From an uncultured delta proteobacterium (GTDB lineage Bacteria; Myxococcota_A; Polyangia; Polyangiales; Polyangiaceae), in contig CAVOKF010000003.1 of the NCBI GenBank assembly GCA_963696385.1, positions 32,001 to 96,000 on the forward strand: a stretch of 64,000 bases of DNA, read 5' to 3'. Positions 32,001 through 50,000 of the stretch are shown here, one piece after another (positions within the stretch are counted from its first letter, which is position 1; the number at the start of each line of letters is the position of its first letter). Position numbers: made by a program.

Positions 32001-35000
32001 AGTGCGATCGGGGATGCGGGGAGAAACGCGGCGCGTATTATGATGTGAATGGCGTCGCGCATGGGCCTTGCGGCCCCGAATGGTTCGACGGCGGATTACC
32101 GCCGAGGCGCGACTTCAAGCCGGTGACTTACGCACCTCAGCAAGGAAACACTCGCTTGGCGGCGCTTGGTCCACATGACCTCCTGAATTGCGCTAGCCCG
32201 AGTGCCGGCCCAAGCCGGAGGAGGAGAACGTCATGCAAAGTACGAATGGCTCTAGTCCGAAGGGAGCGCGCCTCTAATTATCGGGTTCGTCTGCCGCTTG
32301 CGCCCGCATGGGCTTCCACGGGAGCCAATCGGTCCGCAAGAAGCGCGCACACGAAGGCAGCAGGACCGAGCTGCTCTTGCCGCCCCGGCCACCAAGCCGG
32401 CGGCGCGTCGGCTATGCGACACTGCGAGGTACCTCAGTCCGTGCAGGAGCGCCCTTTAGCGATGGGGCCAGATATGGCCCGGGTGGACAGACATCGCCAC
32501 CCGGGCCATTTTTTCAATCGTTGACACGCCGGCAGGATAAGAGCTAGAGGCGGTCCTCCTTTCTCGCCGCGCGGGACTAGCTCAGTTGGTAGAGCGTCGG
32601 CTTCCCAAGCCGAAGGTCGCGGGTTCGAGACCCGTGTCCCGCTCTGAATGATTCCGTGAGGTTGCGAGTAACTCTGCAGGTACTTGACGAGCATCATCGG
32701 TCACCGCTGGTGACAGAAGACGGGCCGCCAACCCCGGATCGATATCCGGCAACGCGGCGGCGGGTACCGGCCTCGCGGCGTCGAGCTCGCGCACGTACCC
32801 CATGTGGACCTTCGGGTCGGCGTGGCTCGCGAGCGTCATTGCCGTCTGCATGTTGACCCCTGCCCCGGCCAGCGCCCGATTGTATGCGCGCCTCAGGCTG
32901 TGGAAGTTCATCCGACGAGACACCGGGGTGTCCCAGTAAAGCGGATCCGCCGGGTTCGGCTTGCCCTTCAACGGAGGGAGCCGCACCACCCCGGCTCGGA
33001 AGAAGTCGCGGCGCAGACGGTTCGCGAACGAGGTGCCGCGGGACTTCTTGTCCTTCCCTGCCCTCGGCCCTCGACGCACCGGGAACACCGGTCCGGCCGT
33101 CGGACCCCCTGCCCTCGCCCACCATGCTCGAAGGAACGGCCGGAGCACTTCGGGCACTTCGAGGTGCTGTATCTCGCGAGTCTTGGACCGCGCGATCGTG
33201 CACCGGGCGAACTCAACCGTATCTATCATCGTCCAGTCCCAACGGATGAGCTCTGACGTCCGCATGCCGCCTTCGGTGCGGGCGACGAACGCGAGCAGCT
33301 TCAATTCGAGGTCGCAGTCCGGCGCGGCCAGGAACTTGCCGACCTCGGCATCCGTCGGACTTACGAACGGGCGCCGATCTCTCTTGAGGCCTTCGGGCAG
33401 TTCGACGTCTTCGGCGGGGTTTGCAGCGATGAGCTTTTCGATCTTGGCGCGCTTGAAGTCGCGGCGCATCACCGCGCGGATCTTGTGTACCGTCTCGTGT
33501 CCTAGCCCGTCGTCGCGTGCCTGCTCGAGAGCCCGACGAACATCGTCATCCGTGATGCGCGTAAGCTGTACGTCACCGATGACGCGGTAGATGTACCGAA
33601 CGCGATTGTTCTGTTCGTCCCGCGCCATCACCACGCCCGCCGCATTGCGCCGCTCGTGTCGGTCCGTCGTGTACGATCGGTATGTCTCCGCGACCTCGGT
33701 CTTGGCTTGCGCGTCGGCAACGTACTCCCCCGCTTCGATCATCGCGACGAGTCGGGCAAGCTTGCGCTTCGCCGTTTGCCGATCCTTCGTGTTCAGCGCC
33801 ATCCATCGGCGTTCGTCGGTGCCGTCTGGTCGTTTGACCCATACGCGGGCGTAGAAACCGCTCGGCTTCGCGATGATCGTGCCTGTTCTTTTGATAGCCA
33901 TCGTTCGCCTGCCTCTTCAGAACCGGGTGGCGCCCGGTTGACGCCCCTTGCGGGGCGTTTCGGCTATTCATGCGCTCACGGCTTGGTCTTGAGTCTGGCG
34001 ATCTCGTCTTCGAGCTTTGCGATCTGCTTTTTTAGCGTGTCGATTTCGCGATCCTTTGCAGAGAGCAGCGCGGCGTAATCATCGCGCTGGCGTTTTATCT
34101 GTTCCGGTGTCTCAGCCATCTTGGCCTCCCTCGTCCCGCATCACGTGCGGACGTGATCCTGATCGGATCACGTTTCGGCCTGGGACGCTATCGTCGCCGA
34201 AACACCCCGCTTTCCCGTGGAATGACCTCGCCCGTCGAATCGACAACCGCGTCGGACTGGCACGAGTGTCGCGGGCACGGCGACGGTTTCGCCCACGGGA
34301 GAGCGAGAGATGCGGCGACGTCGTGAGTCAAAACGACCCCGAATGCCGCGACGGCGTGTCCGCAAAATCGGCAGTGGTATTCGCTTGGCGCGAACGCGTT
34401 GCGCTCGACAGCTTGCGCCTTGACGAGTCGGCGCACACGTTGGTCGACAAGATGGCGCCAGAGTTCCGGCGAGCCCTTGAAGGGGGGACGTGGAAAGTAT
34501 CGGCGAAGGATTCGGGCGGCGCTCATCGGCGGCCCCGTAGCTCGTGCTCGGCGAGGATGTCCTCGTCACGCACTTCGATGGGCTCGCGGTCGAGCACGTC
34601 GACTCGAACCGCAGCGGTGAACGAGGTGAAGCTCTTCTTTTTCGCGTGATAGAAGCGGGCCAAGTGCAAGAGCGCGCAGAAGGCCTGATCGACCGTGCGC
34701 GCATCGGCCGGCGTCATGTCGTCGTCGGCATCGATCAGGGCATCGAGGGCCGCATGCAGGTTTTCGCGGATTCTGTTTTTTAGGGGAGTGGCTAAACTGG
34801 GCACGTTCGTTTCCCTTTCGGTTGCGGACCACGCTCCCGGCGGTTACAGCCGCGCGGGAGCATTCGTTGCGGGCTCGGTGCCCGCCCCGCGCCCGGCCCC
34901 CCAGCGGGAGCGGCACGAGGCGAGCGGCGAGGTCAACGCGTGAGGTCCTGGGCCAACTCCCTGATTCTCTCAACCTCTCCGAGAGCCATCACAATCGTGT

Positions 35001-47000: not shown

Positions 47001-50000
47001 GCGCTCCTCAGCGAGGCCAGCGGTGTAGTGGGAGCGCTCATGCGTCACCTCCGCGACCCAACGTGGGGCAATCGACCCACGCGACTTGCGCCCAACCATC
47101 GATTAGGATGAGCACTGGATAGTTGCGACCGTCGTCTCGCGGGTCGCTGTCGATCTCCGTGAGAATCTCGTCCAGCCCGTCCAGGTGTAGCCCTGCCGAA
47201 TGCAGACAAGGCTGGATGATATGTCGATATGTGAGTTTCGGTGGCCGACCCTCGACCGCGAGAACAATACAAGTTTTCGCGGTGCAATCGTGCGGCGCTC
47301 GCATGATCGAGCCACTGGCCGTCCTCATTAGGCGATCCGCGCGGCGCTCAAGTTGTCGCTTGACGTGCCTAGACGGCGTCATCGGCGCACCGACCTGTAG
47401 ATTTTGGTTCCGTCCGGACACTCGCAAACGAACTCTGTATCGTCGCTCGGGTCATCGGGTAATTCGCCAATGATCGCCAAGTCGTTGTCGTCGAACGGCG
47501 GACCCTTCGCGAGCAGGGCATCGCGGCAGAGCACAAGAGCGCGAGCCATTCGAAGTTCCTCGATGGGGCGCAATACGTGCGCCGGCATCGGCCGCCCCTC
47601 GATTGCGGCGCGCTCGGCGGCGTCGAATTGCTCGACGTGCGCCGTCATTTGCTACCTCGCGCCGCCAAGAACTCGGGCAGTTCACTCGCCTTGATCTCGA
47701 CGTGCTTCGACTTCGGGGGTACCAGCATTTGCTGGACTGGCGCATGACCAGCGGCCCACTCGGCTTCGCGAGAGAGCAAGGCGAGCTCGCATAGCTTCAG
47801 CTCGGCAGTGGCCCTTTCGAACAGGCTTCGCGCCCGCGCCAGGTGGACACCGGCAGCGGGTTCGGTCGCCGTCGTGCTCGCGCCAAGATGCGCGCGGACC
47901 GCGGCGAACAAGTCGATGTCGACAGGCGCGGTCATCGCCGTACCAACCCCGCCGCAGCGGCGATATCGTCAACACAGATCTCGACTTCACTCCGTGGCGC
48001 CCGCGTCGGCCTTTTGCCTCGCCGTGCGAGCCACGCCTTGCAGGCTTCGAAGTCGTAGCGTCTTGCGTCGCCAACATGGGCGGCGACAGGAAGACCCTCG
48101 CGCGTCAGTCGATCGACAGTGGACGCACTCACCCCGAGCACGAGCGCGACTTCTTTTTTTGACAGCAGCCGGTCTGCCGGAATGGACTCTGTGGTGGGCG
48201 CCATCGCCGATCGGATGGCGGCGACCACGTCGGGGCGGCGCAACGCATCCACAAGTGCGTCGCCGAGCAGACGAGCCCCGAGTGTGACTAGTTCGTCGCT
48301 CACGGCGCCACCTGACGGACGAAGGTCCGCGACCGGATCAGCGCCAGTGTCCCGCGGCGAATCGGTAACCCGCCGACTGCTTTGCCGATCGCCTCTCGAC
48401 CAACGCCACACCACCGCGCAACCTCGCTGACCGACGACGCGAGGATCACGCGTCGGAGCTCATCTCGCTCATGCTCGGAGAGCGCATCGGTCGCCGGGTG
48501 ACGCATGCGGCAAACGTAGGCGCCCCGAATTTGCAACGGGACGCTGGCCCGCTATAGGGCCTCATGTTTTGACCTCTCCGGTTACAATTCGTAACTGGAT
48601 TAGATCGTCGCTAACATGCGGGAATCATTGCGTATGGCTCCGCACCCGATGGGGTACATCATGGGTACATCATGAGAGCCAAGTGGCATTTACAACCTCG
48701 GCCGCATCAAGGCCTCGGCATATCGGCGTCAGTCACCAGCCGGTGCCCCGTCACCACTCGTCACACTGAACTACTCGCAGATTCGCGCGCCGCACGTGGG
48801 CCACGCTGACGTCGCTTTGCTTGACGTTGCGGCACCTTGCAAACTTACGAAGGGCCTTCCCAAGCCGAAGGTCGCGGGTTCGAGACCCGTGTCCCGCTCC
48901 CTAGAAATCATTGAGGATTTGCCCTCCGGCTTACTGCGGCCCGCAGTAAGACCAGCAGTAAAATCCGCAGTAAGACCATCGGTTTTTGGGGTGCGATCCG
49001 TCCCGGGGACGGCTCGCATCGGCAGCTCGAACCCGTTGGCTGCGGACAGATCCAAGCGGATGCTCTCGACCGCCGCGTGCAGCGTGGCCAGCGTCTGCGC
49101 CGTGTAATGCTGCTGGGTCACGCCCGATCCGGCGTGCCCCATCAGGCGCTTAATCGTGGCCTCGGCGACGCCCGCCTCCGCGAGCCATGTCGCGAAGTGT
49201 AGAACGACGCGAAGAAGCGCGGAGAGTGCGTCGTGAAACGTTCGCGTTGAGGCTGAGCGGATGAGCATGGGGGGAGGCGTCTACGACGGCGCGAGGTCGC
49301 GTCACCAAGATCAAGTGCTCCAGCGAGGCGGCCTGGACCGGCCGGCGACGCATGGCGGTGGCGGCCGGTCTCCCCGGAGTCGCTTGACGCATGAGCGATG
49401 CTGATCAAATGTTCAGTCCATGGAGCTATCGCTCGGCGTGCGCGTGCTGATGGGGGCCCTCGAAGCCCTCGCGAAATCCAAGGGCTTCGCGGACGTCCGC
49501 GTTCTGCCGAAGGTCAACGCTCGGGGCGAACTCGTGCTCGGCGTCATCCTCCCGCCCCGAACACCGCGCGAGTGGGGCGATTCGAAGGAGCGACCGTGAC
49601 GACGTTGGACGGCCAGACGTGGGCCCTGCACGACGCCATATTTCAGCTCGCCCGGGAACTCGGTCTTGCCTCGTTTCGGGTCGAGTGCAAACTCGGACCC
49701 GGGGGCGAGACCGTCGTTTCGCTCGTCGTCGGCGGCAAGGGCGACGAGCGGTGCGGATCGCGCACTCGAGTCCCTGGGCCCTAAGAATCGCGTGCTGCTG
49801 CTTGACGTCACCCGCACCGGTCCTCACGGCCGAGGTAGACTCGGGGCCCCGAGCCTCGGCGGCCTCGAAGTCATGCGGTGGCACATACTGGCCGAGTCAT
49901 TCCCCGCGTTTTCCCGGCGAATTTCTGATATTTTTGATGGTTCGGTTTTTGCTTTATTGCCGGTTCACGATGCCGTTCGCCTGCTTACCGTTTCGCCGAA

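Follow-up and report, generated by a model that had tools for sequence, protein, structure and literature searches.

Integrated elements of about 16 kb with their own terminase in a myxobacterium: possible phage satellites

Are the two elements of about 16 kb that interrupt tRNA genes of this uncultured myxobacterium phage satellites, as a genome-wide survey's note had proposed, or are they small phages or the remains of larger ones? Element 1 lies within the window, the stretch of 64,000 nucleotides that we analyzed and to which all coordinates refer. Element 2 lies elsewhere in the same genome.

Integration into tRNA genes and a wider family

Element 1 (32601-48899, about 16.3 kb) is inserted in a tRNA-Gly(CCC) gene (32571-32644, plus strand), which was identified by ARAGORN and by the Rfam tRNA model (69.1 bits). 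The 3' 44 nucleotides of this gene are the left att repeat (32601-32644). The right repeat (48856-48899, plus strand) is a displaced copy of the 3' part of the tRNA, matches the left repeat perfectly, and begins 16,255 bp after it. Element 2 is about 16.1 kb long and has a 40-nt repeat that is identical at both ends, with tRNA-Arg(CCT) at the right end. Both pairs of perfect repeats, and both tRNA genes, were thus found again as the survey's note had described them. An integrase fragment (48771-49268; C-terminal part of PF00589, E = 5.9e-4) is located just outside the right repeat of element 1.

The note had also stated that the integrase gene overlaps the tRNA, and it does: the int open reading frame of element 1 (32582-33901, minus strand) covers the att core and runs on into part of tRNA-Gly. 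It encodes a tyrosine integrase of 439 amino acids (PF00589, E = 7.9e-8, 32.7 bits; phrog_1, E = 3.2e-27). Because the att core lies inside int, integration alters the 3' end of the gene. From in-silico junctions, the integrase of element 1 is predicted to have 439 amino acids when integrated and 461 when excised, with the difference confined to the last 6 versus 28 residues; the integrase of element 2 is predicted to have 602 when integrated and 535 when excised, with 131 residues following the core in the former case and 64 in the latter. An att core within the (predicted) int reading frame, as in both elements, is the arrangement of the myxophage Mx8, and the overlap of int and tRNA in element 1 is this known layout (available text of PMC6070905 and PMC4383910). 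As described there, Mx8 also targets a tRNA and infects myxobacteria, but it is a full-size tailed phage.

The elements share a co-linear block, in agreement with the note. By tblastn, 15 of the 31 candidate reading frames of element 1 match element 2 in the same order, at 27-96% identity, although 2 of the 15 are overlapping wrong-frame reading frames. The dN/dS ratio was 0.11-0.43 in all eight gene pairs tested. Purifying selection acts on both elements, and both are intact.

Using a 190-amino-acid protein that resembles a small terminase (TerS; see below), we found seven further elements, so that nine could be compared: elements 1 and 2, L005, L006, L016 to L019, and Rctr16k. Of 400 other genomes from the phylum, the TerS-like protein was found in 4; all 4 are among the 29 from the window's own family, and it was found in 0 of the 371 outside that family. 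Five of the elements are exactly delimited and occupy five different tRNA genes: 16,255 bp in tRNA-Gly, about 16.1 kb in tRNA-Arg, 17,132 bp in tRNA-Val, 15,216 bp in tRNA-Pro, and 13,293 bp in tRNA-Gln. In all five, int crosses an att copy. Elements 1 and 2 belong to a small family of integrative elements, 13-17 kb in length, from one myxobacterial family. What is new here is this set as defined by the TerS-like protein, with seven more elements of which three are exactly delimited (13.3, 15.2 and 17.1 kb). Other metagenome contigs, including one of 16,232 nt, carry proteins of 82-89% identity. The sources of the relatives include metagenome-assembled genomes.

These data bear on whether the elements derive from ordinary 40-50 kb prophages by decay, with their structural genes lost and their mobility gone. 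Structural genes were not recognized, and the integrase fragment outside the right repeat indicates earlier decay at this site. However, the att repeats are perfect, the genes of the co-linear block are all open with dN/dS of 0.11-0.43, five independent elements with one layout and a narrow size range (13.3-17.1 kb) sit in five different tRNA genes, and near-identical proteins occur on other contigs. We consider decay of this kind to be improbable.

Packaging genes and candidate head proteins

All genes of element 1 are read from the minus strand, and int lies at the distal end of the late operon. We scanned 28 candidate reading frames against Pfam with its curated cut-offs. Just two proteins exceeded them: the integrase and an AAA_25 protein. 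With PHROGs (E ≤ 1e-5), the only matches were the integrase, the large terminase, the AAA_25 protein, and a helix-turn-helix protein. Neither collection recognized a coat, portal, tail, or lysis gene among the 28 reading frames.

The early or regulatory end (47379-48536) encodes proteins of 89, 96, 160 and 78 amino acids. The 160-amino-acid protein is of the AlpA/excisionase type (HTH_17, PF12728, E = 1.5e-5, 25.6 bits; phrog_66, E = 9.3e-11). This end of the element is followed by a replication protein of 434 amino acids (45795-47099), which is an AAA_25 ATPase of the RepA/DnaB type (PF13481, E = 8.4e-20, 71.7 bits) that also matches primase/helicase PHROGs. In element 2 the replication gene is a D5_N primase-helicase, as the note had it (E = 2.8e-35). 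Next come a 129-amino-acid protein with an HELSH motif and a 207-amino-acid protein (43982-44978). The former has a weak SprT-like match that is under the cut-off (PF10263, E = 0.0065), and the latter is common to element 2.

The large terminase (TerL; 550 amino acids, 41157-42809) matches phrog_2 (E = 5.1e-11) and phrog_9 (E = 2.3e-7). Walker A, Walker B (DE) and the aspartate columns of the nuclease are kept across four aligned TerLs, so the note's assignment of a large terminase is borne out; TerLs of the relatives match phrog_2 with E values down to 2.8e-19. Directly upstream is the 190-amino-acid putative small terminase (42806-43378). It has no Pfam or PHROG family match and is named for its position and conservation: the TerS-like protein adjoins TerL on the upstream side in all nine elements. 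The start of its gene and the DNA upstream of it are covered by a 521-bp stretch (43302-43822) that elements 1 and 2 share at 96% identity by blastn, as compared to 74-80% outside it. A weaker third copy is on contig C5. This stretch is a candidate packaging or late-control site.

In three elements, a prohead protease is encoded shortly downstream of TerL. It follows TerL directly in L019 (PF04586, E = 1.4e-9), and one gene intervenes in L005 (phrog_530, E = 2e-47) and in Rctr16k (phrog_328, E = 1.3e-29). These proteases bear on a further explanation, that the elements are integrative and plasmid-like, or like gene transfer agents, and that the terminase-like ATPase-nuclease does not package their own genome. 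This seems very improbable to us: TerL retains its ATPase and nuclease motifs, and the primase-like matches are weak. TerL also always follows the TerS-like gene, and this linkage, together with the nearby prohead protease, ties the terminase to capsid assembly.

Downstream of TerL, element 1 encodes a 117-amino-acid protein (40822-41175; 39% identical to the element 2 copy) and then an orphan protein of 473 amino acids (39372-40793), at the position expected for a portal gene. The model of this protein is confident (pLDDT = 89.6), and structure comparison did not match it to a portal or HK97 fold or turn up any other structural relative. The next protein, of 248 amino acids (38629-39375), is largely of low complexity. 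By blastp, it is similar to the C-terminal, non-protease half of a 391-amino-acid protein of L005 (24% identity over 228 amino acids, E = 1.2e-5). As the L005 protein is a prohead protease (PF09979, E = 3.3e-26, besides phrog_530), this similarity suggests that the 248-amino-acid protein is a scaffold-like head-assembly protein.

Proteins of 58 and 119 amino acids (38125-38657; element 2 counterparts at 63% and 88% identity) come next. Like those of 61 and 117 amino acids, they have no Pfam or PHROG family match. They are followed by a protein of 404 amino acids (36910-38124), of which the N-terminal 100 or so residues are conserved and the rest is predicted to be a beta-propeller. Our model, like the note's first one, was of low confidence (pLDDT = 42.9), and its topology is that of a propeller. 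We do not take this protein for a capsid protein, as the low-confidence model is a propeller and not an HK97 fold. In the model it resembles a receptor-binding or lectin-type protein. It could be part of a tail fiber, which would fit a small phage and a satellite alike.

A 173-amino-acid protein (36378-36899) with a GC3 of 0.85 is absent from element 2. To judge by eye, it begins with what could be a signal peptide, and it is probably cargo. The accessory region (34188-36374) has small reading frames of 112, 93, 68, 74 and 61 amino acids and includes an ambiguous stretch (35364-36189); only the 68- and 61-amino-acid ones are common to element 2.

Satellite or very small phage

The check for a capsid or portal protein of element 1's own rests on Pfam, PHROGs, and the folds of the 473- and 404-amino-acid proteins. 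Because most of the genes are orphans, a coat or portal protein might have gone unrecognized. The elements might then be very small autonomous temperate phages with coat, portal, and tail proteins that have diverged beyond recognition. The 473-amino-acid protein would then be a portal or a new shell protein, the 248-amino-acid protein a scaffold, and the propeller a receptor-binding part of a tail. Indeed, the gene order (TerS, TerL, the 117-, 473- and 248-amino-acid proteins, and later the 404-amino-acid protein) runs from head to tail, and in L005 the 473-amino-acid homologue sits after TerL and before the prohead protease. Rctr16k (KX853514.1), which comes from an enrichment culture and is recorded as a virus of 16.7 kb, shares the TerS-like protein (34% identity over 160 amino acids) and TerL (25% over 419) and has a tape-measure-like protein. 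Furthermore, a capsid protein was identifiable in only 29% of contigs of 11.6-20 kb from small HK97-type genomes (available text of PMC13669383). On the other hand, the well-folded 473-amino-acid model matches neither a portal nor HK97, and the remaining large candidates are a propeller and a low-complexity protein. Nor is there any gene between TerL and the protease in L019, and Rctr16k has just a 197-amino-acid gene there. No lysis gene, tail tube, or long tape measure was recognized in element 1 either, and its coding capacity downstream of TerL is only about 1,650 amino acids. Overall, we judge autonomous phages to be rather unlikely, though a good deal less so than decayed prophages. A stronger version, in which the 473-amino-acid family is a new portal or shell protein and the elements are complete mini-viruses that pair a Duplodnaviria terminase with a non-canonical particle protein, is improbable in our view.

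Our preferred reading, which we hold with about even confidence, is that the elements are satellites that depend on a helper but contribute their own terminase as well as a head protein of the scaffold type. With a packaging enzyme but no recognizable gene for a capsid, portal, or tail tube, they probably travel in the particles of a helper phage. Across the elements examined, neither Pfam nor PHROGs matched a capsid, portal, or tail-tube family. Two relatives do have tail-related matches: L017 to phrog_1101, and Rctr16k to tape-measure PHROGs. The wider set of elements (13-17 kb) with the TerS-like protein and TerL makes the satellite reading stronger than two copies did. The survey's proposal therefore stands insofar as the elements are intact, under purifying selection, and part of a wider set without recognizable capsid, portal, or tail-tube genes; the 473-amino-acid protein leaves room for a tiny autonomous phage.

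As satellites, the elements would excise and replicate after induction. Their own terminase would recognize their DNA, perhaps within the 521-bp stretch at the start of TerS, and the DNA would be packed into procapsids made of the helper's coat and portal proteins. The 248-amino-acid protein would steer assembly towards capsids that fit about 16 kb, and in relatives a whole prohead protease may fill its place. The propeller may be an adhesin or a receptor-binding part. The genome that carries elements 1 and 2 has no match to PF05065 or PF04860, the two families with which we searched for a helper phage, and neither an excised circle nor an empty insertion site was seen.

Among known satellites, the closest are the cf-PICIs. 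According to the available text of the SatelliteFinder paper (PMC10085698), these are about 10-17 kb, have an integrase, an AlpA/HTH-type regulator, and a replication gene, encode a large terminase beside the small one (unlike classical PICIs), and can include a protease. Element 1 has the same core (PF00589, HTH_17 with phrog_66, and AAA_25) and a TerL with a phrog_2 match and conserved motifs. It differs from the cf-PICIs of that text in having no recognizable major capsid protein, portal, head-tail adaptor, or connector, in having all of its genes in one orientation and int at the distal end of the late operon, and in its myxobacterial host. Classical PICIs and SaPIs also use the helper's capsid and redirect packaging through a TerS of their own; a capsid-morphogenesis (scaffold-type) protein may be encoded as well. 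However, PICIs typically lack TerL and other phage structural or lysis genes (PMC10085698, available text), whereas TerL is present in element 1 and every other member of this family. Rctr16k likewise has an integrase, a replication gene, a prohead protease, and no recognized coat or portal protein, but its other genes are unrelated, it encodes a tape-measure-like protein of 580 amino acids, and it is annotated as a partial genome.

Full-text literature searches did not find a report of phage satellites in soil myxobacteria, and "Myxococc" does not occur in the available text of PMC10085698. If the elements are satellites, they would extend phage satellites to these hosts, with a layout between PICI and cf-PICI (TerS, TerL, and scaffold or protease of their own, with the coat and portal taken from the helper). 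This would raise the question of how a foreign terminase docks on the helper's portal. For structural biology, the 473-amino-acid protein offers an orphan fold that is predicted well and is linked to head assembly.

A hammerhead ribozyme ahead of the integrase gene

Directly 5' of int in element 1 is a type II hammerhead ribozyme (RF02276, 33903-33965, minus strand), as the note had reported. It scores 52.2 bits (the gathering score is 37) and sits between the int start (33901) and the stop (33976) of a 47-amino-acid coiled-coil reading frame (33976-34119), which has only weak matches of the coiled-coil type. The alignment contains CUGAAGA, GAAAC, and GUC, in agreement with the hammerhead core (CUGANGA, GAAA, and a cleavage triplet that ends in UH). 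Stem III has 5 bp, stem I has 7 bp, and stem II is open with 2-3 bp. The predicted cut, 3' of the C at 33940, would leave a 38-nt leader ahead of the int AUG, and GGCG is predicted to form a pseudoknot with CGCC of loop I. The 3' strand and the pseudoknot appear to overlap the likely ribosome-binding site of int, so int expression is probably modulated by the folding and cleavage of the ribozyme. On the minus strand, no terminator-like site was found between int and the genes upstream of it. The ribozyme would cut read-through transcripts and so part the int mRNA from the long operon RNA. That cleavage uncouples int expression is plausible from the layout, in element 1 only: one of the nine elements carries a hammerhead, and none was found in the other eight.

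The association of hammerheads with integrases is already known. Those beside integrase and prophage genes in Perreault et al. 2011 (PMC3088659, available text) are of the same class and lie in intergenic regions of polycistronic phage-like transcripts, with an adjacent integrase. The ribozyme of element 1 differs from those described there in being a single copy that seems to overlap the likely ribosome-binding site of int, and it adds a case of this arrangement.

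Boundaries, gene content and integration of the two elements

Our analysis confirmed as a whole the observation in the genome-wide survey's note, which described two related tRNA-integrated elements with perfect terminal repeats, a large terminase, few other recognizable genes, a co-linear gene block and, in one of them, a hammerhead ribozyme. At element 1 (32601-48899), the last 44 nt of tRNA-Gly(CCC), 32571-32644(+), are repeated perfectly at 48856-48899, 16,255 bp away. Element 2 (locus L001) is bounded by identical 40-nt repeats on the same contig (L001 1454-1493 and 17595-17634), which cover the 5' half of tRNA-Arg(CCT); an intact copy of this gene lies at the right end. 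Islands with a 5' tDNA fragment are the rarer class in Islander according to the counts in PMC4383910 (159 of 3919), and element 2 belongs with them.

Essentially all genes of element 1 are on the minus strand, as judged from GC phase and from the long ORFs between the repeats. Just two of 28 candidate ORFs, those of the integrase and an AAA_25 ATPase, scored above Pfam's curated cutoffs, with an HTH_17 protein near the cutoff; PHROGs adds the large terminase, or TerL (phrog_2, E = 5.1e-11), and PADLOC gave nothing beyond one HTH match and one coiled-coil match. In tblastn, 15 of 31 candidate ORFs matched element 2 in the same order, at 27-96% identity.

Several genes fall outside this shared set. 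A 173-aa protein at 36378-36899(-), found in element 1 only, has an N terminus that looks by eye like a signal peptide and a GC3 of 0.85, far above its neighbors; it is probably cargo. Element 2 has an ERCC4-type nuclease gene (PF02732, E = 8.6e-13; L001 2347-2802(+)) upstream of its D5_N primase-helicase, with no counterpart in element 1. Homologues of the AAA_25 replication protein elsewhere in the genome, at C8:186-1304 (56% identity), C2:96158-97246 (35%) and C6:85522-86496 (36%), probably mark other integrative elements. Outside element 1, the window has a group II intron match (D1-D4-4, RF02003, 60.9 bits) at 15628-15796(-).

In both elements, the att core lies inside the integrase ORF (int). 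The int of element 1 stops 19 nt into the tRNA in the integrated form, giving 439 aa, and would encode 461 aa after excision; for element 2, the lengths are 602 aa integrated versus a predicted 535 aa excised. This is the arrangement of myxophage Mx8, for which the passages on attachment in PMC6070905 and PMC4383910 place attP within int, so that the 3' end of int changes upon integration. Directly outside attR is the C-terminal part of a second integrase, 48771-49268(-), whose ORF also crosses the displaced part of the tRNA. It is what remains of an earlier element in this tRNA-Gly, and therefore the site was used before. Positions 48896-49169 match the right flank of element 2 at 74% DNA identity. 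When we compared 31500-50000 with low-depth soil-metagenome contigs from four DNA runs of one study, we found neither a joint between the two ends of the element nor a clear empty site.

A wider family of elements

The best-conserved marker of these elements is a 190-aa TerS-like protein, which adjoins TerL upstream and has no family match. It is 46% identical between elements 1 and 2, 62-65% identical in two loci from metagenome-assembled genomes (L005 and L006, reached through relatives of a 473-aa orphan protein of element 1), and 34% identical in Rctr16k, a 16.7-kb virus record (KX853514) that is also the sole phage record matched by TerL. Of 400 further genomes sampled from the phylum, four had a match to it, and all four belong to the family of the host (4 of 29, versus 0 of 371 elsewhere). 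TerL genes, integrases and tRNA genes surround these four matches. Three of the elements are bounded exactly by tRNA-derived repeats (17,132 bp at tRNA-Val, 15,216 bp at tRNA-Pro and 13,293 bp at tRNA-Gln), and all three have an int that extends across an att copy; the fourth extends past the end of its contig. The five delimited elements thus occupy five different tRNA genes and span only 13.3-17.1 kb. Gene content across the elements is mosaic: besides a few small genes, they have int, TerL and the TerS-like protein in common, and the middle genes vary. Scans of viral contigs with the 473-aa protein, a 404-aa protein of element 1 and alignment A4, and of metagenome contigs with alignment A3, gave no locus.

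Two features of the related loci in other genomes are recorded here. At L018, a second integrase ORF (23-871) lies on the other side of the tRNA-Val gene (809-882) and also overlaps it, so one tRNA gene is common to two elements. L018 (12275-12580) and L016 (13322-13627) each contain a 101-aa, Leu/Pro-rich ORF of three 96-nt tandem repeats, 45% identical to each other.

Further metagenome contigs, including one of 16,232 nt, encode proteins 76-92% identical to those of element 1. Eight gene pairs compared between elements 1 and 2 had dN/dS values (Nei-Gojobori) of 0.11-0.43, which points to purifying selection; plain decay of the elements is unlikely. A 521-bp stretch at the start of the TerS-like gene (43302-43822) is 96% identical between the two, versus 74-80% elsewhere. 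This stretch may serve as a site for packaging or late control, or it may be a trace of recent exchange between both elements. A third copy is present in the same genome at C5:1512892-1513133 (71% identity), with a reading frame of 103 residues that is 50% identical.

Head genes and a proposed dependence on a helper

The Walker A, Walker B and nuclease Asp columns of TerL are kept across four divergent copies; a profile search of PDB sequences with the TerL alignment (A6) found nothing. A terminase requires a portal and an HK97-type shell. Pfam and PHROG searches matched no major capsid, portal or tail tube family in any element, and the host genome has no match to PF05065 or PF04860, the two families searched. 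Three elements do have a prohead protease beside TerL: immediately after it in L019 (PF04586, E = 1.4e-9), after the homologue of the 473-aa protein in L005 (PF09979, E = 3.3e-26; phrog_530, E = 2e-47), and in Rctr16k (phrog_328, E = 1.3e-29). Between TerL and the protease there is no gene in L019 and only one gene, of 197 aa, in Rctr16k. Element 1 has a 248-aa low-complexity protein that aligns (24% identity over 228 aa, E = 1.2e-5) with that half of the L005 protein which is not the protease; because of this alignment we read it as a scaffold-type head-assembly protein.

Structure models covered two element 1 proteins. The 404-aa protein was considered as a capsid protein and rejected, since its topology in a low-confidence model is a propeller. 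For the 473-aa protein, the 400 other genomes of the phylum gave nothing convincing (two short weak matches, E = 3.5e-5 and 5e-4), the Atlas had no usable match, and a profile search of PDB sequences with its alignment (A1) gave nothing meaningful (best E = 0.0035 over 42 residues). Foldseek searches of PDB and BFVD and VIA-align, which mainly covered residues 123-227 and 330-461 of its model, returned no portal or HK97 match. Weak BFVD matches and the conserved D50 and D118 raised the idea of a primase-polymerase or Toprim-type enzyme, which we set aside because Gly and Pro make up most of the conserved positions and the gene is part of the head module.

Element 1 has at most one unassigned protein of a size suited to a portal or shell, and therefore it cannot supply both. 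We hold with moderate confidence that the family consists of helper-dependent satellites that have their own terminase and scaffold or protease and borrow coat and portal; the element's terminase would pack DNA into the coat and portal of a helper. The narrow size range, perfect att sites, purifying selection and recurrent layout favor this reading. Tiny autonomous phages with unrecognizable structural proteins are a possible, rather doubtful alternative, with support from the gene order (head, then tail) and from tail-like matches in L017, another related locus, and Rctr16k.

A hammerhead ribozyme upstream of int

The type II hammerhead lies at 33903-33965(-) and scores 52.2 bits in Rfam, versus a gathering score of 37; its alignment includes the full core and three stems. 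Cleavage is predicted after C33940, which would leave a 38-nt leader ahead of the int AUG. We read the sequence as allowing GGCG at 33909-33906 to pair with CGCC of loop I, a candidate pseudoknot of a kind that the account in PMC3088659 describes for type II hammerheads, and this predicted pairing would cover an AGG 6 nt before the AUG. The minus strand between int and the upstream genes has no terminator-like site. Given this and the pairing over AGG, it is plausible that the hammerhead processes transcripts that read through from upstream and thereby affects translation of int. The proposal that self-cleavage uncouples int expression stands in part: processing before int is plausible, but we found no hammerhead in the other eight elements.

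That hammerheads are associated with integrase or prophage genes has already been published. The same genome contains a second type II hammerhead, at C1:357951-358019(+) (47.6 bits), between a 99-aa ORF and an ATG. It directly precedes this ATG, and its tail ahead of the start codon, CUGAAGAGGCAG, is the same as that of the element 1 hammerhead.
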